A stretch of 62,197 bases of DNA, filler included. It is 4 parts of 4 records of this genome, joined end to end, with 100 filler letters (N's around TTAATTAATTAA, not from the genome) between each part and the next. Parts side by side here need not be neighbours in the genome. Positions count along the whole stretch, not along the records: positions 40,150 to 55,935 come from DRR723986_7771; 3 more parts are not named here. The stretch is one strand, 5' to 3'. A program made the translations under genes and the position numbers. Numbering within the stretch: the stretch's first letter is position 1; every line of letters starts with the position of its first letter. Positions 25,807 to 56,035 of the stretch are shown here, one piece after another. Below the pieces are notes generated by a model. That model ran no database searches. It was not told the DNA's origin and saw only the letters and a program-made list of their open reading frames with translations.

Positions 25807-25906
25807 NNNNNNNNNNNNNNNNNNNNNNNNNNNNNNNNNNNNNNNNNNNNTTAATTAATTAANNNNNNNNNNNNNNNNNNNNNNNNNNNNNNNNNNNNNN
25901 NNNNNN
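25807..25906. other. Artificial contig linker
   Basis: N-run, TTAATTAATTAA (stops in all six frames), N-run. Confidence 0.98.
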
Positions 25907-40049: not shown

Positions 40050-40149
40050 NNNNNNNNNNNNNNNNNNNNNNNNNNNNNNNNNNNNNNNNNNNNTTAATTA
40101 ATTAANNNNNNNNNNNNNNNNNNNNNNNNNNNNNNNNNNNNNNNNNNNN
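40050..40149. other. Artificial contig linker
   Basis: N-run, TTAATTAATTAA, N-run. Confidence 0.98.
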
Positions 40150-43733: not shown

Positions 43734-46472
43734 ATGCAATGTTCTCGATTAGGTCTTTCCGGGTCTGCGGAATTTACGTGCAAGAATTCGCGCAACATTA
43801 ATGGGCTGATTTTCTCACTGTTTTTCGGCATGGCATTTTTCTGTTTGTCTCCGGGATTACATGCCCAGGACACCGATTCCGGTGTGCTTGAAGGTCAGAT
43901 TCTGAATGCGGAATCCGGTGATCCGATTCCCGGTGCCGTGATTGCCGTGCTGGGGCTGCGACGCGGTGGAATCAGTCGCGCCGATGGCTCTTTCCGCATT
44001 TCACTGCCGGCCGGTGTTTATACTGTCCGGATTTCGGCTTTGGGCTACGGCCTGGTACAGGAAGAAGTCACCATCGTCATTGGTGAAAGTACCGTCAAAG
44101 AATTCAATCTGGAAAGCAGCGTCGTACAGCTGGGTGAAGTTACGGTAACAGTTGGTTCACGTGCCGATAGAACGGCGATTGAGACAGCCGCACCGGTAGA
44201 TATCATCGATTCACGTGCCATTGAGCGCGGCGGCTACACGGAGCTGGGCGAAGCACTCCAGCAATTGGCGCCGTCCTTCTTTTCGGCCAATCAAACGGTC
44301 TCGGACGGCACGGATCACGTTGATCCCGCCAGTTTGCGCGGCCTGGGGCCAGATCAGGTGCTCGTCCTGGTTAACGGTAAACGCCGGCATAGTTCCGCGC
44401 TGGTGAACGTCAATGGCACAGTGGGACGCGGCACAGTCGGCACCGACTTTAACGCGATTCCCGTCGCGGCGATTCACCGGATTGAAATCCTGCGTGACGG
44501 CGCCGGCGCACAGTACGGGTCTGACGCCATTGCAGGTGTAATTAACATTGTCCTTAAGTCCGATGCGCGTTTGTTGGAGGCCGGCACAGTCGTAGGCACC
44601 ACCGCCGAAGGTGACGGTGAGGAAGTCATGGCATATGCAAATCTGGGCGCTGAGCTGGGAGACATGGGCTATGCGATGATCAGTGCAGAGGTGCGCGACC
44701 GCGCGCCAACCAATCGTGCCGGTGAATATACCGGATCGGTGTACGACGCTGATGCCGCAACCGATGAAGCCCAGATTGCGGCGCGTGGTTTTGACCGTGC
44801 CGCCATGCAAATTGGGCGTTCCGAGCAGAGCAGCGCCGCCATTTTTGTGAACGCACTTACGCCGATTTCGCAGGAAGTTGACTTCTACGCTTTTGGAGGT
44901 CTCAGCTTCCGCGAAGGCAATGGTTTTGGTTTTTATCGTTATCCCATCCAGGAAGAGCGCGGCAATCTGGAACTGTATCCCGACGGCTTTTTACCTGAAA
45001 TTTCCACTACAATTTTGGATAAGTCGCTGGCACTGGGTTTAAGTGCGTATTACGGTGACTGGATCAGCAATTTCAGTCTGAATCACGGTGGCAACCAATT
45101 TGCCTTTGGTGTTAACAATTCTTTGAATGCTTCACTGGGGCTTGCCACGCCGACGGAGTTTGACGCAGGCAGTGTTTTATATGATCAGACCAGTCTGAAT
45201 GTAGATATGTTACGCTACTTTGACAACGCCTTGCTGGGTGCGGCAGTTACATTGGCGCTTGGCGGTGAATATCGCGTTGAACATTATGCAATTGCAGCCG
45301 GCGATCCTGAATCGTATTCTTTTGGTGGTGATACTACCAGTTCCGGCGCGGTAAAATCACCTGGAGCGCAGGTGTTTCCCGGATTTCAGCCTGCAAACGA
45401 AGTCGATGAATATCGCAGTAATCTGGCTTTGTATGCCGAACTTGAAAGTGACCTGACCGAGCAATTGTTTTTGGGGCTTGCCGCGCGTTATGAGAACTAC
45501 AGTGATTTTGGCGATCAGATCAGCGGCAAGTTCTCGGCACGCTTTGAGCCTATCGAAAATCTGGCGCTGCGTGCTACAGTTGGTAATGGATTCCGCGCGC
45601 CTTCACTACATCAGCGTTACTTCAATAATATCAGCACGCAGTTTGTGGAAGATCCTACGTCCGGGGCGCTCGTAGCCCGCCAGGTGCTGACGAGTGAAAA
45701 CAGCAGCCCCGTTACACGCGCCTTTGGGATTCCAGTCCTCAAGGAAGAGACGTCGATCAATATGAGCGCCGGAATAGTTGCGCGCCCAATCGATAATCTC
45801 TCACTGACCGTAGACCTGTATCAAATTGATATCGACAACCGGATTGTGCTTTCAGGACGATTTTCTGACAGCGATCCGGCCGCCGCGCAGATTCTGGCCC
45901 CGTTTACCTCAGTAAGTGCCGCACAGTTTTTTACAAATGCTGTGGATACGCGCACACAGGGGGTTGACCTTGTTTTGGCTTACAACGTCAAGATTAGCGC
46001 GGGAGAGTTAAACTCCAGCATTGCCCTTAATCTGACGAAAACCGAGGTGCAGAACCTGAATGTTCCCGATAATCTGACCGGCCTGGAAACAACATTGTTT
46101 AACAGGGAAGAACGTTCGCGCCTGGAGAGTGCGTCACCAAATGAGCAGGTGACTCTGGGCCTGGCCTATCTGCTGGACAACTGGACTGTCTCGGCGCGTG
46201 TTAATTACTTTGGATCTGTGGAATACGTGCATCCCAGCCTGCCGGCGAATGACCAGACATTCAGCGCAAAAACGCTGCTGGATGCTGAGTTGCAATACAA
46301 GCTGTTTGAGACTCTGCGCATCGGGCTTGGCGGCAAAAATGTGTTTAATGTTTATCCGGATGAAAACATCGAAGCCAATCGCAGTCAGGGACGGTTTGTG
46401 TACAGTCGCCGCGTGACGCAGTTTGGATTTGAAGGCGCCAATTACTACCTGAAGTTGCACCTGACGCTCTGA
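43734..46472 (+). CDS. TonB-dependent receptor with N-terminal CarboxypepD-like domain
   Basis: EVTVTVGSR TonB box; plug LRGLGPDQVLVLVNGKRRH and GAQYGSDAIAGVINI; barrel GFRAPSL. Confidence 0.93.
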   Translation: MQCSRLGLSGSAEFTCKNSRNINGLIFSLFFGMAFFCLSPGLHAQDTDSGVLEGQILNAESGDPIPGAVIAVLGLRRGGISRADGSFRISLPAGVYTVRISALGYGLVQEEVTIVIGESTVKEFNLESSVVQLGEVTVTVGSRADRTAIETAAPVDIIDSRAIERGGYTELGEALQQLAPSFFSANQTVSDGTDHVDPASLRGLGPDQVLVLVNGKRRHSSALVNVNGTVGRGTVGTDFNAIPVAAIHRIEILRDGAGAQYGSDAIAGVINIVLKSDARLLEAGTVVGTTAEGDGEEVMAYANLGAELGDMGYAMISAEVRDRAPTNRAGEYTGSVYDADAATDEAQIAARGFDRAAMQIGRSEQSSAAIFVNALTPISQEVDFYAFGGLSFREGNGFGFYRYPIQEERGNLELYPDGFLPEISTTILDKSLALGLSAYYGDWISNFSLNHGGNQFAFGVNNSLNASLGLATPTEFDAGSVLYDQTSLNVDMLRYFDNALLGAAVTLALGGEYRVEHYAIAAGDPESYSFGGDTTSSGAVKSPGAQVFPGFQPANEVDEYRSNLALYAELESDLTEQLFLGLAARYENYSDFGDQISGKFSARFEPIENLALRATVGNGFRAPSLHQRYFNNISTQFVEDPTSGALVARQVLTSENSSPVTRAFGIPVLKEETSINMSAGIVARPIDNLSLTVDLYQIDIDNRIVLSGRFSDSDPAAAQILAPFTSVSAAQFFTNAVDTRTQGVDLVLAYNVKISAGELNSSIALNLTKTEVQNLNVPDNLTGLETTLFNREERSRLESASPNEQVTLGLAYLLDNWTVSARVNYFGSVEYVHPSLPANDQTFSAKTLLDAELQYKLFETLRIGLGGKNVFNVYPDENIEANRSQGRFVYSRRVTQFGFEGANYYLKLHLTL

Positions 46473-46476
46473 GAAA

Positions 46477-48705
46477 TCAGTTTAGAGTATATTCAAAGCC
46501 GAGCCTGAAACCGCGCCCCTGATGTGCCAATGCACCGACCGATAATCGGTCGGTGTACAACTCATCAAAGAGATTGTGCGCCGTAAAATTGAGCCTGAGC
46601 TTTGGCAGCACCTGCCATCCGCTGTTAAGTGTAACAATTGCAGCGCTGGAGCTAGGCGGCGTGTCTGCTGTAAACTGCGCGACACGCTCCGATGCAAACA
46701 GTGTGCGAAGCATAATTTGTGCATACCAGTCCTGTTGTTGAGTGCCCAGCGTCAGTTGAAGTTCCGGCTGAGGGATAAAACCGAGAGGATCATCCAGCGT
46801 GTGGTTTTGTCCGTAATACAGTCGAAACTGTGAAGCCAGTGTCCATTCAGGCAAAAAGGTCCAGGCGGCCTGCAGGTCTGTTCCCAGACGTGTTGCGCGG
46901 CCCAGATTTTCGAACTGCCGCAGTTCGGTACCAAAGTCTTCGCCTCCAACAATGTCATCAATTAGATACAGGAAAATGTTGGATGAGAAGCTCCAGCTGC
47001 TACTTGAGTGCTCAGCCCGCAGGTTAAACTGCAGGGCTTGCTCAGGATCGATGTCCGGATTGCCAAGGTAAAAATGGCCGTCCGAGACTTCAAAGAGCAG
47101 GTTTCCATACAGCTCAATTGGAGTCGGTGCGCGCCGCACAAACGCAACACTGAAGTCTAGCGCGGTATTTTGATCCACCTGCCAGGCCAGGGCTCCTGTT
47201 ATTCCACCTGAAAAAATGCTGCGCTGATCTGCACGCATCCCGGTTGAGGCTTCGAGTGCTCTGCGTCCGGCCTGATCGCCCAAATTGTTAACACCAAGTT
47301 CGAGTCTGGCCGAAACCTGCAGCAGCCAGTTTGGATCAAGTGCCCAGGGGAGTGTACCTGAGACTGCGAGATTGTCCGAATAGTAATCACCAATTGTTTT
47401 AACAAATGCCTGGTCCTGTGGATCATCCAGGTTGATCATGCGCATGTCTGCATCAAAATTGCGGCGAAACAGATTAAACTTCAGGCGTGGCAACAGAGCA
47501 CTGCCGGACTGAAGGTGTGCCCGCAGGGAAAGCCCCATGGTTTGTGAAACGCCGTACATCGGCATATTCATACCGGGCATGGCAACGCGCGTCCGAATCT
47601 CGTCCTCACTGCGATCATAGTCATCCATCCAATGTTTAATCTGGTTGGCGTACACGCGTGATTCCAGCTTAAACAAGGCCGATCCAGGAATGTGGATTTC
47701 ATGTGTTAAGGCGCCAATCCAGGCATCCGCGCTGCGTGCATCCATAATCATGGCTGGATAACCCACGTCGCGCGTGGCATCGTAAAGCAGGGAAGCCCGC
47801 AGTGTTTGATTCCGGCCCAGCCGGAGAGTGGCGGCCAGATGCGCATTCCACTTGTCAAATTCCGATCCTGCAATTGCCACGTTTTGACCGGCGGTATAGT
47901 CTTCACTGGCGCGTTGAGTGACGGAAAGCAGGATCGCCTTACTGCTATCTCCACCGGCGATACTGCCGAATAACTGGCGACCGCTGCCATTTGAATTGTA
48001 GGCCAGACCGAGTTTTCCACCCCAGGGCCTGGCGAGTTCCGCGCGCCGCATTTTAAGATTAATGCCGCCACCGATCACAGAGCTGTGCTCCAGGTCTGGA
48101 GCTTCCGTGTTAATCTCGGCTTTCTGCAGATTCTGTGGTTCCACATAGGCTGCTGCCGGATCCATATGGTCCACGCAGGCGCCCTGGATTTGCATGCCGT
48201 CGATCGTCAGTCCCTGGCTTGCACTGCGAATTCCATTAACGATCGGTTCATTGGCGAAACCAGCGCGGCGAACGAGGCAGACTCCGGGCTCGGCGGCGAT
48301 GGTCTCTTCGATGCTGCGTCCACCGCGGCTGCCATTGCGTCGGGCTCCTTCGTCAAACACAACTATGGCTCCTGTCTGAAATTCTGCGCGCCGTCGCAGA
48401 GAAAGTTCGAGCGTCGTATCTGCCGGGTTTAAGCCGGGAAGCGTTACCGAACGCTTGTAATCAAGGTAGTCAGAATGTGTGGCCTCAAATATATATGTGC
48501 CGCTGTTTAACTCAATTCGGCATATACCGGCTTCATCACTTATCTGTGCCTCGCTTGAATTGTTAATGCGCAGCATCACACCTGCAAGCGGAGCATTATT
48601 TTTGGCATCAGTAAATACGACACGAACGTTAGCTGCAGCAGCATTGCCGGCAGCTGACAGAAGTATCAACAGCGCAAGCAGCGCCGGAGGGATGCGTGTT
48701 TTCAT
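46477..48705 (-). CDS. TonB-dependent receptor with OprC/NosA-type copper motif
   Basis: Plug IDGMQIQGACVDHMDP (CxxxM), HWMDD (HxM), Met-rich MPGMNMPM, GNPDIDPE and C-terminal GFEYTLN. Confidence 0.85.
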   Translation of the reverse strand: MKTRIPPALLALLILLSAAGNAAAANVRVVFTDAKNNAPLAGVMLRINNSSEAQISDEAGICRIELNSGTYIFEATHSDYLDYKRSVTLPGLNPADTTLELSLRRRAEFQTGAIVVFDEGARRNGSRGGRSIEETIAAEPGVCLVRRAGFANEPIVNGIRSASQGLTIDGMQIQGACVDHMDPAAAYVEPQNLQKAEINTEAPDLEHSSVIGGGINLKMRRAELARPWGGKLGLAYNSNGSGRQLFGSIAGGDSSKAILLSVTQRASEDYTAGQNVAIAGSEFDKWNAHLAATLRLGRNQTLRASLLYDATRDVGYPAMIMDARSADAWIGALTHEIHIPGSALFKLESRVYANQIKHWMDDYDRSEDEIRTRVAMPGMNMPMYGVSQTMGLSLRAHLQSGSALLPRLKFNLFRRNFDADMRMINLDDPQDQAFVKTIGDYYSDNLAVSGTLPWALDPNWLLQVSARLELGVNNLGDQAGRRALEASTGMRADQRSIFSGGITGALAWQVDQNTALDFSVAFVRRAPTPIELYGNLLFEVSDGHFYLGNPDIDPEQALQFNLRAEHSSSSWSFSSNIFLYLIDDIVGGEDFGTELRQFENLGRATRLGTDLQAAWTFLPEWTLASQFRLYYGQNHTLDDPLGFIPQPELQLTLGTQQQDWYAQIMLRTLFASERVAQFTADTPPSSSAAIVTLNSGWQVLPKLRLNFTAHNLFDELYTDRLSVGALAHQGRGFRLGFEYTLN

Positions 48706-49520
48706 CAGGGAACCTGGACGAACATTTCAATCGATTCGATGCGTGCGCTCTGTTCATTAAGAGTCGGTACTTCAATCCCGACTGTCACGCGCCAGCGGCC
48801 GCTCATCGTGAAGTTAACGGCGCCATTAAATTGTCCGGGCATTTCACCGGCAACAGGAGTAACATTGTTGTTTGAACCGTGCCCCATACTGGGCATGTCC
48901 GGCTCCATTGTAAAGCTCGCAATGCTGACCGGCTGGAACTGCATGTGTGACTTGCGCATGTAAAGCATAAATTCCACATCATTCATTCCGATTTGCCAGT
49001 CGGCTTTTTTAAGTGCCAATGCATAGGTTCCGGCTTCTGTCAAAGCCGGATCAGTGACCATTTTGCAGTAGTCGGCCTGTTTTACCTCAAGAGGAAAGTT
49101 TGGCGAATACTCTTTGCCATCAATAGTGATGTTTAGTGCCAGGTTCCATTTGTTGTCCAGCATGGACGGCATGACAAAAACAATGTCAAACTTGCTGTCA
49201 TCTACGACTAAACGCGGAGCCGAGTGGAGATGAGTGCCCATGTCCATCGTTGGCAGGAATTGCCAGGAGTCGGGTGTAATCAACGCATCTGTTTGTTTAT
49301 CGCGAACTTCAATTTTGAAGTTGTTATAACCAACGTAGGGAGCCTCTTTTCCAAGGATGTTAATCCGGAAACCATCCAGATCAATGAATGTGACGACCGT
49401 TGAGAATTGTGCGTCAACATCTGTGTCCTGCGATGGTCCCGCAGAATCATCATCATCACACCCAATGACAAACAAAATGCTTATGCTTAAAAGTACTACC
49501 AGGGAATTGCGATTAAACAT
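48705..49520 (-). CDS. YtkA/FixH-like lipoprotein with Met/His metal-binding motifs
   Basis: Lipobox VIGC; PTMDMGTHLHSAP, PDMPSMGHGS and VNFTMSGRW; TGATG overlap with the TBDT. Confidence 0.8.
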   Translation of the reverse strand: MFNRNSLVVLLSISILFVIGCDDDDSAGPSQDTDVDAQFSTVVTFIDLDGFRINILGKEAPYVGYNNFKIEVRDKQTDALITPDSWQFLPTMDMGTHLHSAPRLVVDDSKFDIVFVMPSMLDNKWNLALNITIDGKEYSPNFPLEVKQADYCKMVTDPALTEAGTYALALKKADWQIGMNDVEFMLYMRKSHMQFQPVSIASFTMEPDMPSMGHGSNNNVTPVAGEMPGQFNGAVNFTMSGRWRVTVGIEVPTLNEQSARIESIEMFVQVP

Positions 49521-49803
49521 GATTTCACCAATTGTGAACGTGTATATGGAATTCTAATATTATTCGTACGGATATAAACATGTGTAACAGGGCATTGCGC
49601 TCCGGCCAAACACGTAGAACTGTCGAGGTAGAAACTACCCTGTAGAATCAATAAGTGCAACCTGAATCCTTCGCGAACTCGGATGCAAGAATTGCTGCAA
49701 ATGGAGAGTTTCGTCAGGCAATGCCGGAGCTACAACCAGACAACTCCAGGCAAATGCTGGAAATGCAGTTGAAAAAGCGAAAATGCAGGGAAGAATGTAA
49801 GAA

Positions 49804-50163
49804 TCAGGCGCGCGGCGGGTGTTCTGGGCGGCGCAGATATCCGTTAAGTTCGGATTCGGAGATTAAACTGTGATGTTCCAGAGTAATAATCGGTGTTTTG
49901 TTTAATTCCGCCAGGTTCTGAATAAGGGGTGCAAGTTGAATAACCTGACTGTCCAGTTGAAGCTGTTTACTGTCGGATGCATCACTTTCCTGTTCAACTT
50001 TAGTGATGTGACATTTACCTTTGCAGCATTCGGACTCGGGATTAACACAGTAGGTTTCGGCGATCCATTCGCTACAACCATAGTACGTGGTCCACAACAC
50101 GGTGGCGCCGTGAAAGTGAAAACCAAGGAGGACCAGAATTAATATTGCGACTGTTTTTTGCAC
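49804..50163 (-). CDS. Small Cys-rich exported-type protein ending in HPP (DUF2946/CruR-like leader candidate)
   Basis: N-terminal hydrophobic segment, YCVNPESECCKGKCH, C-terminal RRPEHPPRA*; GTG start. Confidence 0.7.
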   Translation of the reverse strand: MQKTVAILILVLLGFHFHGATVLWTTYYGCSEWIAETYCVNPESECCKGKCHITKVEQESDASDSKQLQLDSQVIQLAPLIQNLAELNKTPIITLEHHSLISESELNGYLRRPEHPPRA

Positions 50164-50235
50164 GGCTTCAAATTAACATTTTAGGGCTAGAATTGCAAGG
50201 CGAATACGCGATTGGATCGTTGATTAGTTGCGAAG

Positions 50236-50697
50236 CTAATTCTGTTTAACTTTCTTACGTGCGGCCAACCATTCGTCCAGAGAATACTTTCCGGCCTCAT
50301 GATGCAGAAAGTGGACACAGGCACCGAGCAGGCATAAATTCTTAAACAAATTGCTGCGTTGGTAAACATCCCACAACCACAAGCAATCGCTGGAGAGATC
50401 CGCCGGAGCCTGCAAAACCGCCGGAAGATGCACCGTGGCGGTGACGCCAATCAGAAATCCCCCTAATATCATTGCGCCCCAACTAACGCGATAGCCGATC
50501 ATGATCATGAGGCCGCCCAGGAGCAGCACCATGCCTATCAGAATCGAGACTTCGCGTTTGAAGCCGACCCAGACCGGCATAAGCGTCTGCAGTAGCTCAT
50601 CTGCAAATAAGTGCTCCATGCCCAGCCCAAGGAAGATCAGGCTGAACAGAAAACGAAATATTACACTTGAGGCATCATGGCTAATCAACTTTCGCAT
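50236..50697 (-). CDS. DoxX-like membrane protein
   Basis: FRFLFSLIFLGLG.EH, several TM segments, LFKNLCLLG; start MRKLISH overlaps the SDR end. Confidence 0.75.
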   Translation of the reverse strand: MRKLISHDASSVIFRFLFSLIFLGLGMEHLFADELLQTLMPVWVGFKREVSILIGMVLLLGGLMIMIGYRVSWGAMILGGFLIGVTATVHLPAVLQAPADLSSDCLWLWDVYQRSNLFKNLCLLGACVHFLHHEAGKYSLDEWLAARKKVKQN

Positions 50698-51806: not shown

Positions 51807-54800
51807 TTAGCGCAGATTAACAACCTGAATGTCAAATGAGCCACTCAGTGTTGAAACGCGCACAGTGAACGTTCCCGAAGCCTGTGCAGCCAGGTCAAGT
51901 GGCAATACCTGTTTGCCAATGCCCTGGAAGCCGTTGAAAATCTGACCCAGCGGGCGTCCAGTTTGGTCAAATAGCTCAGCACGTACGAGGCCGGCTTCAA
52001 CCAGTTCGTATGCTATCGTCGCCTGGCCATTGGCTGGTTGCGGGTAGATAGCAATGCTGGATGCTTTGACTTCGCGTGGAGTTTCACCAACACTGGTAAC
52101 AACCGGGAAGTCCCGTACGCTACCGTCTTCGAGTACCAGACAGAGACGCAGGTCGTAGCCAGAAGGAACCGTACCAGGTTCGTCACCTGGTGTCAGGAAG
52201 CCACATGCCAGCAGGACGCCGGTTTGACCACCCAGGCCGTCAGTGTTGAGGAAGTACTGACCAGCAACCGTGTTTGGGTCACCGGCGGCAGTAACAGTTA
52301 CGTCAAAGACGGCTGGAGATTCAGAGATATAGTCGCTGAAAGAACCAAAAGCAAGATTCGAGAGCAGAGGCGTACCGTCATCAGTCAGGACAACGTCCAC
52401 GTCCGGCGCATCGGTTGAGCCATGGAAAACAGTGAACTCAAAGTTGTTCGGGTTTTCAGTTGGCTCAGAACGCAGCTGCAATACGTCAACGTCCAGCGAA
52501 ATATCACGACCGTTGACAGGATTGTTAAATCCTTCGCCGGCTACACCATTGACAATCGCTGCATAACGTTGGTCAACGTCCATCGCTGGAAGCGTCATGC
52601 TCAGGATCACCTCGGAATCGACTCCAGTGCTGGAGGAACCTGCAACGACGATGTTGTTCGCCTGTCCGGCTGGAACTCCCAGAAATTCCGTTGCGCCGCG
52701 GAAGGGCACATCGTCAAGTACGGGTGTCTTGGAACCATTGATATAGATGTCAACGACTGCAGCAGCCGGATCCGGAGAGTTGTGAATCAGCTGGACGTTG
52801 GCCAGATCCGGTGCATCAGCAAACAGCTCCGTTACCGATCCGTCCGGGCGCATGATATAGACACCCAGGGTAGATGTAGCAGGAACGGTTCCTGGCTCTC
52901 CATCAAGCGTGGCAAAGCCGGAGGCAAATACCAAACCGGCGCCGCCATCCTCATTGAGGTCAGCCGCATAGAGGCCAATGATATTATTTACGTTGCCGGA
53001 TTCCGTTACGGTGAATACATAGTCGCCGTTTGGAAGTGCGAGGTAAGTCGATTGCTGTCCGTAATCAAGGCCCGGAATAACCGGAATGTCAAGACTCAGC
53101 CCAAAGACGTCGAGCTCCGGTGCATCAGTCACACCGTGAAAAGCCACTAACGCGAAGGTACCCGCATCTGGAGACGTTGAAACAGCGTCAATCAGGTAGG
53201 TTTGAATCTTAATGTCACGTGTGCCTGGATCCGGATTCTCATAGTCGTCTTCATCAACACCGTTAACGATCAGGAAATGCTCCGAATCAGTATTCAATGG
53301 TCCGATGCTGCGACGGTGCAGAACGCGGTCATCACTACGCGTGCTGGCGCCTTCAGCTACTACAAGGTCAAGTGTTTCATTCGCAGGCACATTGATAAAC
53401 GGCGTCGCACTGCGGAAGGCCAGGTCATCTGTTCCCGCTAAACGCTTACCGTTGATGTAGATGTCTACCGTACCGGCTTCGGTCATTGCCGAGTTATTTA
53501 GGAATTGAATCTGAGCGGCGTCTTCCACGGCAACCGTCAGGGGAGTGACTGTACCGTCGGCAGCAGCCATAGAGAGGCCAAAGTTATAGACTTCTCCCAG
53601 CACGGCCGGTTCGTTTTCAGGCGTCACAAATCCGTGTGCAAAGATGCTGACCGATTGACCTTCAAAGGCACTCAGGTTCAGATCATAACTTTGAACAACC
53701 AGGTCTTCATTGCCTGCAGCAGTTACGCGCAGAATAAAGCCTTCCGGTGCCAGCGAAACATAGTCGCTGATATCAGCATAGTCCAGGTTGGCAATCGGAG
53801 GTGCACCAATTCCATCAATGCGGAAGTCAACGGCCGGCGCGTCAGTTACGCCGTGGATTGCCAGGAATTCAGCATTGATGTCAACGTCGGCTTCCGAGCG
53901 CGCTTCAGCGATGCTCAAACCGAGGTTCAGGTCGCGGTTTTCGCTATCCGGATTTTCATAGTCGGCTGGGTCGTTAAGGCCTACAGCCACTCCAACGTAC
54001 TCTGTGTAGCGCGTCAGCTGGCCAGGCATAATTTCTTTGATTACGCGATTCGTAGGGCCGGAGCTGCTTGGCTGTGCAAAAGTCACAGTCAGGTCAACTT
54101 CTGCAGGCAAGTCGATGTACGGCGTTGCGCCAAGGAAGCTCAGGTTGTCCGTCGCCATCGGCTTAAAACCGTTAACGTAAATGTCAACAGTCTCGGCTGC
54201 AGGGTCTGAGGCCGAGTGAATAACCTGCATGCGCGCTACAAACGGCATTTCGATTACATCACCATTACCGAGTGCGGCATACAGTTTCATTTCATATGCT
54301 TTCGGAATCACAACCGGCTCATTTTCGGTCGTCACAAATCCCGAAGCAAACAAGACGATGCTCTGTCCACCAACTTCGCTCAGGTCAGCGAACCAGCGGC
54401 CAATCAGATCAATCTTGGAATTATTTTCAGTCACTGAGAATGAGTAGACGCCATTTGGAACGGTCACAGGTGGGCCGTCATCACCAAAGCGCACATTCTC
54501 CATCAGTGGCGAACCTTCAAGGTTCGTAAAGATGTCAATGCTGGGAGCGTCGGTCACACCGTGAACGGTGTAAATGTCAACTCTGTCATCTGCGGATGAA
54601 GCTTTGTCAACTTCCACCAGTACGATGTCCAGCGCCAGATCGCGGTTGCCCGGATCGCCATTTTCAAATCCGGCATCCTCAATCAGGCCATTGATGACTA
54701 CTGCATAGTCCTGGCCGGGAATCAGGAAGTTAGGATTGATTTCACGAATCAGGTTGTCATCGGAATCTGTGCTCTCGTCCCCATTAATGCGAATTTCAGG

Positions 54801-55730
54801 GCGAATACCGGATCGTGTTGTGATGTAAGGAGCAGCGCTGCGGAACGCCAGGTCATCCAGCGCGTCCGGTTTTTCGCCGTTGATGTAGACATCAATCACG
54901 TCAGTATTTGGAAATCCACTGTTGTGGATAATCTGAATATCTGATCCTATTTCCGGGAAGGGCACCACCGAGCCGCTCGGGCGCACGGCGTACATGCCAA
55001 ACTCGTGGTCGGCCGCTATTGCTTCCGGCTCGTCTTCCGGTGTATAAAAACCGGATGCCACAACCACAAAAGGTTCGTTAAAACCAACGATAGGGGCTTC
55101 AAAACCGCGAATCGGCTGGTTGAGGTCATTCGCAAGCGTAAAGACGTAATTGCCTGGGTCAATCGAAACGTAGCCCGAAAAAGCGTTGTACGCCAAATCG
55201 TCTACATCCGGTGTCCCCGAACGGAAATCCGTCAGGAAGTCAAACGCAGGTACGTCTGTTCCGGTGTGGAACAGTACAAATTCTGCTTGTGCATTGTTCT
55301 GGCGTGTGTTGCGCACTTCACGACGCTCAATCGTGTAGGTCAGGTCACGACCATCACCTGGATCCTGAAAACCGTCACCACGTACACCGCTAATCACGAA
55401 TACGTAGTAACCATCGGCCACCAGCTGTCCGGTATTGATGAAAACTCCATCATCAAGTTTGCCTTCACCAACACTTGTACTGCTTGCATCAGTCAAGGTG
55501 ATTTCATAGATGCCCGGGTCCACCTCAAAGAACGGCGTCGCACGGCGATACCGTAAGTCATTGAGGCCCGCGGGTTTAAGGATGTTTAGATAAACGTCAA
55601 GGACCGCATGATCCGCACTGTGGAAGTTGTGGATAAACTGGACGTTGGCCTGTTGAGCCTGGCCCGGGCTTGCACACATCAGCAGGCCCAATATTGTGCC
55701 GGCGATCAGAAAACGAAACTTTACATTCAT
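51807..55730 (-). CDS. Large secreted protein with five tandem DUF4397-type modules and T9SS C-terminal domain
   Basis: Five repeats starting VQFIHN/IQIIHN/MQVIHS/IQFLNN/VQLIHN, each with H.xxDAP.D-type and ASGF-type motifs; C-terminal IYPQPANG..SGTFTVRV. Confidence 0.85.
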   Translation of the reverse strand: MNVKFRFLIAGTILGLLMCASPGQAQQANVQFIHNFHSADHAVLDVYLNILKPAGLNDLRYRRATPFFEVDPGIYEITLTDASSTSVGEGKLDDGVFINTGQLVADGYYVFVISGVRGDGFQDPGDGRDLTYTIERREVRNTRQNNAQAEFVLFHTGTDVPAFDFLTDFRSGTPDVDDLAYNAFSGYVSIDPGNYVFTLANDLNQPIRGFEAPIVGFNEPFVVVASGFYTPEDEPEAIAADHEFGMYAVRPSGSVVPFPEIGSDIQIIHNSGFPNTDVIDVYINGEKPDALDDLAFRSAAPYITTRSGIRPEIRINGDESTDSDDNLIREINPNFLIPGQDYAVVINGLIEDAGFENGDPGNRDLALDIVLVEVDKASSADDRVDIYTVHGVTDAPSIDIFTNLEGSPLMENVRFGDDGPPVTVPNGVYSFSVTENNSKIDLIGRWFADLSEVGGQSIVLFASGFVTTENEPVVIPKAYEMKLYAALGNGDVIEMPFVARMQVIHSASDPAAETVDIYVNGFKPMATDNLSFLGATPYIDLPAEVDLTVTFAQPSSSGPTNRVIKEIMPGQLTRYTEYVGVAVGLNDPADYENPDSENRDLNLGLSIAEARSEADVDINAEFLAIHGVTDAPAVDFRIDGIGAPPIANLDYADISDYVSLAPEGFILRVTAAGNEDLVVQSYDLNLSAFEGQSVSIFAHGFVTPENEPAVLGEVYNFGLSMAAADGTVTPLTVAVEDAAQIQFLNNSAMTEAGTVDIYINGKRLAGTDDLAFRSATPFINVPANETLDLVVAEGASTRSDDRVLHRRSIGPLNTDSEHFLIVNGVDEDDYENPDPGTRDIKIQTYLIDAVSTSPDAGTFALVAFHGVTDAPELDVFGLSLDIPVIPGLDYGQQSTYLALPNGDYVFTVTESGNVNNIIGLYAADLNEDGGAGLVFASGFATLDGEPGTVPATSTLGVYIMRPDGSVTELFADAPDLANVQLIHNSPDPAAAVVDIYINGSKTPVLDDVPFRGATEFLGVPAGQANNIVVAGSSSTGVDSEVILSMTLPAMDVDQRYAAIVNGVAGEGFNNPVNGRDISLDVDVLQLRSEPTENPNNFEFTVFHGSTDAPDVDVVLTDDGTPLLSNLAFGSFSDYISESPAVFDVTVTAAGDPNTVAGQYFLNTDGLGGQTGVLLACGFLTPGDEPGTVPSGYDLRLCLVLEDGSVRDFPVVTSVGETPREVKASSIAIYPQPANGQATIAYELVEAGLVRAELFDQTGRPLGQIFNGFQGIGKQVLPLDLAAQASGTFTVRVSTLSGSFDIQVVNLR

Positions 55731-55935: not shown

Positions 55936-56035
55936 NNNNNNNNNNNNNNNNNNNNNNNNNNNNNNNNNNNNNNNNNNNNTTAATTAATTAANNNNNNNNN
56001 NNNNNNNNNNNNNNNNNNNNNNNNNNNNNNNNNNN
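55936..56035. other. Artificial contig linker
   Basis: N-run, TTAATTAATTAA, N-run. Confidence 0.98.

Follow-up and report, generated by a model that had tools for sequence, protein, structure and literature searches.

A probable Bacteroidota leader peptide family built like the copper-sensing arrest leaders, from different parts

CruR (Bp2923) of Bordetella pertussis is a DUF2946 (PF11162) leader peptide (Roy et al. 2022, PMC9426467) for which ribosome arrest has been shown (PMC12992588). Its motif spacing of 45 +/- 1-2 residues is conserved and needed for function (PMC9426467), changing its RAPP motif to AAPP abolishes arrest (PMC12992588), and a cruR homolog also lies upstream of oprC itself in Pseudomonas aeruginosa (PMC9426467). 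CutF of Rhodobacter capsulatus is a copper-ON element for a multicopper oxidase that acts via a stem-loop over the Shine-Dalgarno sequence (PMC9973294; bioRxiv 2025.02.05.636593); list D of the 'CutF-like' set, with 29 clusters, is 19% Bacteroidota (PMC9973294). The RAPP/RGPP arrest peptides include ApdA, ApdP and the SecM class (PMC10987492, PMC12992588), and according to one survey Bacteroidota lack RAPP/RGPP upstream open reading frames (uORFs) ahead of copper-related genes (PMC12992588). Two more papers serve as context only (PMC12914433, PMC11213822). We describe a leader open reading frame (ORF) of 119 codons in a 62,197-nt stretch of DNA (the window), which precedes genes for a YtkA-like lipoprotein and an OprC-like TonB-dependent receptor. 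Judged from sequence comparison, it belongs to a family that resembles the known copper-sensing, ribosome-stalling leader peptides in build, is made from different parts, and probably switches off copper import when copper is plentiful.

The leader ORF runs on the minus strand from a GTG at 50163 to a TGA at 49804; a plus-strand reading of 49804-50163 was ruled out because that frame contains stops. Homologues share 53-58% identity with the window protein, mismatches to its close relative L001 fall 19/11/35 at codon positions 1/2/3 over the first ~66 codons, and the GTG start is also kept in L001 and L002. On these comparative grounds the ORF is a real gene. A first-pass annotation had proposed an analogous nascent-chain metal sensor from a hydrophobic N-terminus, a CSEW..YCVNPESECCKGKCH Cys cluster and a terminal RRPEHPPRA*. 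All three are present in the minus-strand protein, and the proposal itself, a strong inference, is partly supported by the comparisons that follow. The best 19-residue Kyte-Doolittle mean in the N-terminus is 2.2. A lipobox occurs in none of 103 aligned family members, which rules out a lipoprotein, and a small-x-Ala site occurs in only 23 of them. AlphaFold2 models confident helices at residues 2-17, 19-29, 31-38 and 50-68, followed by an unstructured tail; Pfam, NCBIfam and PDB sequence searches returned no match to the leader, and Foldseek found no fold match.

In its build the leader follows CruR. It would open a copper-uptake operon that includes a TonB receptor gene, and it has an N-terminal export-like segment, a Cys motif, a C-terminal Pro-Pro at a fixed spacing and a long intergenic gap; an unstructured stretch with C>G near the 3′ end may be a further likeness. 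The parts themselves are unlike those of CruR, as the first-pass annotation had already said of two of them: the Cys pattern is C-x7-C-x-G-x-C here (C-x7-9-C-x-G-x-C more widely) instead of CxxC, and the putative arrest motif is E-H-P-P here and [IV]-F-H-P-P in the family instead of R-A-P-P. Additionally, the spacing is 65-67 residues rather than 45, the Cys site is flanked by helices, the family is from Bacteroidota and the mRNA is predicted to be leaderless. The window protein has no match to DUF2946 (PF11162) at E<=1, nor has any of the 103 members at E<=0.1. In a same-sized Bacteroidota sample one genome has a DUF2946 match above the cut-off, and the four weak PF11162 matches among 151 genomes belong to other proteins, to which the leader profile gives no match. 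By profile, Cys motif, arrest motif and the 45-residue spacing, the leader is not a DUF2946 member. Separately, in Bacteroidota genomes we observed leaders rich in His that end in RAPP and precede lipoprotein-like genes (L128-L131); these leaders match DUF2946 weakly and are unrelated to the leader family profile.

The likeness extends to the other systems in part. As in the 'CutF-like' set (Ozturk 2023, PMC9973294), the leader is shorter than 150 aa (119 aa), carries an N-terminal targeting segment, a Cys-rich site and Pro-Pro within its last 15 residues (at 116-117), and has a same-strand neighbor within 1000 nt (gap 283 nt). One of the 29 clusters of that in silico study may already contain the family. 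Unlike CutF, it stands before importers, its gap is long, and neither a Shine-Dalgarno-like site before the next gene (0/61 loci) nor a stem-loop was found, the folding of the window gap being no better than that of shuffles (z -0.09). With the RAPP/RGPP arrest peptides it shares a small uORF, a localization signal and a C-terminal di-proline, and it differs from them in having no Arg at -2.

A word-based search returned one homologue (58%), and a profile of both sequences led to 53 representatives, nearly all of 100-150 aa. The family profile matches 49 of 151 Bacteroidota genomes drawn evenly across the phylum, with 1-3 copies in each; this sample overlaps relatives of the genomes that carry L001 and L002 (G001, G002), namely G049, G081, G085, G097, G121 and G141. 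The ESM Atlas placed the leader among unnamed Bacteroidota and Ignavibacteriota clusters, and for the nearest named Atlas clusters, DUF6660 and DUF6769 (feature scores 0.92 and 0.91, only 92 of 256 features shared), no Pfam match was found in the 103 members. We assembled a second, independent set of 80 genomic loci that were fetched by the downstream YtkA-like lipoprotein alone. An upstream ORF with C-x7-12-C-x-G-x-C lies directly before the YtkA-like gene in 70 of these, and 69 of the 70 family ORFs have Pro-Pro within the last 14 residues, compared with 5 of 383 control ORFs (at least 200 aa, same loci). The remaining ten loci comprise three recognizable variants (L039, L044, L075), three other Cys-rich ORFs ending in Pro-Pro, and four with no such ORF or too little upstream DNA. 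Two loci, L045 (no Pro-Pro) and L047 (another Cys pattern, 249 aa), were excluded from the nucleotide statistics. Different Cys-rich ORFs that end in Pro-Pro and carry CxC or CCC motifs stand before the YtkA-like gene at L021:3480-3920, L027:3270-3707, L068:3156-3731 and in L047, Calditrichota included; the leader slot appears exchangeable.

Six positions, C39, C47, G49, C51, P116 and P117, are invariant in an alignment of 103 rows, most of which were chosen on the Cys pattern and not on Pro-Pro. (Alignment A3 excludes L012, L024, L062, L065 and 15 of 52 new library matches as near-duplicates, fragments or sequences with long or uncertain starts.) Across the rows the motif reads C-x6-9-C-x-G-x-C, position 27 is F or Y in 100% and N41 is kept in 89%. 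Three of the five cysteines of the window protein are thus family-invariant, while C30 (6%) and C46 (24%) are not; these two and the R-x-P-E-H end are subfamily traits, and 30 of the 103 members have 4-5 Cys near the motif. The first-pass annotation had also looked to conserved CxGKC and terminal HPP. We found CxGxC and the terminal Pro-Pro conserved, and the His less so: position -1 is H in 68% and position -2 is F in 58% and D in 15%, and H115 is replaced by Q in L001 and L002 (ending Q-P-P), the two closest genomic relatives of the window locus. The conserved C-terminal element is Pro-Pro with a preferred [IV]-F-H context, not HPP as such.

The distance between the two conserved elements is nearly constant. 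Counted from the last Cys, the first Pro lies 67 +/- 1.4 aa away (62-70) in 69 of the 70 YtkA-anchored loci, 66 +/- 1.9 in the alignment and 65 in the window, with a family median of 66-67. Pairs of members are on average 49% identical around the Cys and 40% at the C-terminal end, but 11% in the linker (residues 56-110). The linker, put at about 60 residues in the first-pass annotation, counts 64 (between C51 and P116) and is not purely polar. As a control, spacing within the folded YtkA-like lipoprotein varies with a standard deviation (sd) of 1.6 across 57 aa and of 3.3 across 96 aa, so that the leader linker, at 1.4, is as length-constrained as a folded domain. Subgroups of spacing can be seen (L117 and L119 versus L120-L122; 74 residues ahead of one type of TonB receptor, 62 in a separate clade), which suggests lineage- or target-specific rulers. 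All 16 Pro-Pro codon pairs occur among the 69 loci, so the constraint acts on the peptide, and RNA-level conservation of CCN CCN codons is ruled out. The tail after Pro-Pro varies from 1 to 6 residues, favoring an elongation pause, and arrest at termination of the Pro-stop type was on this ground rejected as the main reading. If the modeled helix 50-68 folds together with the Cys site, the folding unit would end 48 residues from the P-site, near the value for CruR; alternatively, the extra 20 residues may span a membrane.

The Bacteroidota -7 box occupies -12 to -5 and occurs in a TAnnTTGY variant, and leaderless mRNAs make up only 5.5% in Flavobacterium psychrophilum (PMC9723704). We found a TAnnTTTG box 3-9 nt 5′ of the start in 35 of 107 leaders but in only 3 of 260 first-in-operon control genes; a relaxed pattern gives 48/107 and 18/260, with the distance peaking at 4-5 nt. 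With the box at -12 to -5, the mRNA is predicted to be, and probably is, leaderless. The box in L001 and L002 is TAATTTGC, the TAnnTTGY variant, with the GTG exactly at +1, and the window box stands in the same register. A TTG lies 20 nt farther upstream of the window box (50196-50198), a spacing that we take to match the promoter consensus. The box occurs before the leader in 36 of 68 loci (8.4 in shuffles) and in the intergenic gap in only 6 of 60 (11.6 in shuffles), and none was found in the 283-nt gap of the window. Enrichment before the leader and not in the gap implies that the downstream genes appear to need read-through. Sigma-70-type sites near 49551-49588 (5, versus 2.1 +/- 1.4 expected by chance in this region) were rejected as a promoter, the region being AT-rich.

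Gaps between the leader and the next gene are long, with a median of 130-135 nt and a range of 35-364 nt. That of the window is poorly conserved even across the three closest loci, and no intrinsic terminator was found in it; a riboswitch or other known RNA was ruled out for 49300-50400, with no Rfam match at E<=1. C exceeds G from ~49976 to 49740 in 78-nt windows, partly owing to the Pro codons. Over the first 40 nt after the stop, C exceeds G in 52 of 69 loci versus 121 of 291 control genes, G is lower (0.14 versus 0.21), pyrimidine is higher (0.60 versus 0.50) and folding is weaker. Rho is encoded in all three closest genomes tested.

The genes that follow point to copper. The YtkA-like lipoprotein gene overlaps the TonB receptor gene by one base. 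Among NCBIfam models, the copper-receptor model TIGR01778 scores best against the receptor (E 9e-36, 124 bits, below the cut-off of 472), and the only PDB match is OprC of P. aeruginosa (6FOK), with which both CxxxM and HxM align, the copper site defined in OprC (PMC8610252); the window receptor is distant in sequence and, unlike OprC, is preceded by a YtkA-like lipoprotein gene. A TonB receptor with C-x3-M-D-P is present in 58 of the 74 YtkA-anchored loci that have enough downstream DNA. We also collected loci by the leader profile, which was trained partly on the YtkA loci and is hence not fully unbiased; five of 42 (L123-L127) fell outside the Cys pattern and were examined separately, and three of the loci are near-duplicates. 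In the 37 leader-first loci counted, the next gene encodes a YtkA-like lipoprotein (11), a TonB receptor (12, four with TIGR01778 as best match), MbnP (4), SCO (1), an unassigned protein that begins with C-D-x-C-G (5) or another protein (4). Read from these gene families, the genomic context is copper acquisition, not detoxification.

We consider it very likely that the leader acts in cis as an arrest leader of some sort, and likely that copper is its signal. The complete CruR-like scheme, copper-OFF and based on Rho, has by analogy somewhat better than an even chance. A constitutive sigma-A promoter would yield a leaderless mRNA from the leader GTG, with the ribosome trailing RNA polymerase from the first base, and the hydrophobic N-terminus would dock the nascent chain at the membrane or Sec. 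The ribosome would pause at x-x-H-Pro-Pro with the three-Cys site 65-67 residues away, beyond the exit tunnel. Without copper, the paused ribosome would cover the G-poor, C/U-rich tract at the stop and keep Rho from loading, and transcription would run on through the genes for the lipoprotein and the OprC-like receptor. Cu(I) on the three Cys would fold the helix-Cys-helix unit, whose pull frees the stall; the ribosome would leave and Rho would terminate transcription in the 283-nt gap, as inferred from CruR. The polarity is proposed because copper represses OprC and importers like it (PMC8610252).

Several observations weigh against this scheme. Its main weakness is that the Arg at -2 needed for CruR arrest is absent from the leader motif, and xHPP (F/E-H-P-P) is not among the motifs in the accessible parts of two arrest-peptide surveys (PMC12992588, PMC10987492). 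The post-stop bias is G depletion and not C enrichment (C 0.21 versus 0.20, p 0.12), at synonymous sites toward the 3′ end of the coding sequence C>G is favored only marginally (p 0.06), and the loci are phylogenetically related, making all such p-values optimistic. The window box differs from either consensus form at one base. Spacing is looser in the 37 leader-first loci (62-74, sd 3.5), where eight of the 12 downstream TonB receptors do not have the copper receptor as best match and four of the 37 next genes look unrelated. Divergent relatives (L124, 1452-1854 on the plus strand; L125; L126; L127) keep the length, the hydrophobic start and the terminal Pro-Pro while the Cys set is partly lost; their genes precede other exported proteins that resemble TonB receptors, and retuning to other ligands is possible.

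The same eight receptors raise the question of whether an arrest leader here reads something other than, or in addition to, copper, such as periplasmic thiol redox state or disulfides, another soft metal (Zn, Ni, Ag) or, like SecM, secretion capacity. The Cys-poor paralogs and the 30 of 103 members with 4-5 Cys near the motif would fit such a signal, as would the disulfides proposed for the CutF cysteines (bioRxiv 2025.02.05.636593). Three invariant Cys cannot all pair, however, 20 of the 37 next genes have a link to copper through their family or the operon that they head (YtkA-like 11, MbnP 4, SCO 1, TIGR01778-type 4), and no sec gene is found among the 37; we regard such a signal, in place of copper or beside it, as unlikely. 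The logic of CutF itself, in which the stall opens RNA structure at the start of the next gene and acts on translation, possibly copper-ON and without Rho, seems to us rather improbable. A membrane-targeting N-terminus and a long Cys-to-Pro-Pro distance would suit periplasmic sensing as in CutF, the window end R-P-E-H-P-P-R resembles P-E-G-P-P-P-R-L of CutF (bioRxiv 2025.02.05.636593), and some leader gaps are as short as 35-60 nt. Here and at the family median, however, the gap is too long for direct unwinding, there is no Shine-Dalgarno site to hide, the gap neither folds better than shuffles nor is well conserved in the three closest loci, and the leader would control genes for import, not detoxification.

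An ordinary copper-binding protein of the periplasm, anchored in the membrane, working in trans with the lipoprotein and receptor and using Pro-Pro as a binding or turnover motif, would account for the confidently folded N-terminal half (predicted local distance difference test, pLDDT, 87-95 over residues 1-60) and for the conserved amphipathic helix, and Cys-rich tails often act as chaperones. It leaves unexplained a fixed-length junk linker, the invariant first position in the operon, the leaderless-type promoter, the long gap with its G-poor tract, and the exchange for unrelated Cys-rich, Pro-Pro-ending ORFs at the same place (L021, L027, L068), and we give it the least weight of the three.

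Feature coordinates are collected in the table. Elsewhere in the window, a DoxX-like gene lies upstream of the leader, as it does in L002, and a second TonB receptor gene (43734-46472, plus strand) runs toward the copper receptor gene, their stop codons only 4 nt apart. A secreted protein of 1307 aa, encoded at 51807-55730 on the minus strand, combines about ten stretches of DUF4397 with a type IX secretion tail. Three runs of N (25807-25906, 40050-40149, 55936-56035) join separate contigs; segment 40150-55935, which contains type IX secretion tail domains, has a GC content of 0.51-0.53 versus 0.54-0.61 elsewhere, and the flanking pieces resemble another organism by impression, so the window may mix genomes.

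Table. Features of the leader locus and of the genes that follow it, in window coordinates.
Feature	Position	Strand	Basis or remark
Sigma-A -7 box-like element of Bacteroidota type, TAATTTGA	50168..50175	-	GTG start would sit at or next to +1
Leader ORF, unnamed Bacteroidota Cys3...Pro-Pro family	49804..50163	-	119 aa; homologue comparison
Hydrophobic N-terminal segment, ~residues 5-24, signal peptide or signal anchor	50092..50151	-	Kyte-Doolittle; AlphaFold2 helices
Cys cluster C39-x7-C47-x-G-x-C51, flanked by helices 31-38 and 50-68; putative metal site	50011..50049	-	invariance in 103 rows; AlphaFold2 model
Linker of fixed length and variable sequence, helix 50-68 then predicted disorder	49822..50010	-	alignment; model
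His-Pro-Pro, with Pro-Pro as candidate arrest site, 2 codons 5′ of stop	49813..49821	-	P116 and P117 invariant
G-poor, pyrimidine-rich tract right after stop, candidate Rho loading site	49764..49803	-	78% pyrimidine; 12 C versus 3 G
Intergenic region between leader and YtkA-like gene, 283 nt	49521..49803	-	no -7 box, intrinsic terminator or Rfam match
YtkA-like lipoprotein carrying Met/His motifs; would be the first gene under control; putative copper chaperone of the periplasm	48705..49520	-	PF13115, E 1e-9; alignment
OprC-like TonB-dependent receptor with CxxxM and HxM motifs	46477..48705	-	TIGR01778; OprC alignment

Our literature search, to which subscription papers were mostly out of reach, yielded no paper in which this motif set is described or tested, and its results do not address the regulation of copper uptake in Bacteroidota. 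In its broadest form, which we hold to be doubtful, the proposal is that Bacteroidota have evolved, independently of DUF2946, phylum-wide metal-sensing arrest leaders, with a new Arg-free [IV]-F-H-P-P motif, a leaderless mRNA that locks ribosome and polymerase together from the first base on, and a 67-residue ruler that reads periplasmic Cu(I) across the membrane and leads to Rho-dependent termination, the Cys-variant paralogs being retuned to other ligands; such a union of periplasmic sensing, Rho and copper-OFF control is shown by neither CruR nor CutF. If the arrest reading is true, the family would fill the Bacteroidota gap among arrest leaders of copper genes in about a third of the sampled genomes (49/151) of a phylum that is major in soils, waters and sludge. 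It would also supply an arrest motif free of Arg, open to structure determination by cryo-electron microscopy, and the leader would serve as a marker for copper-uptake genes among the many unannotated TonB receptors.
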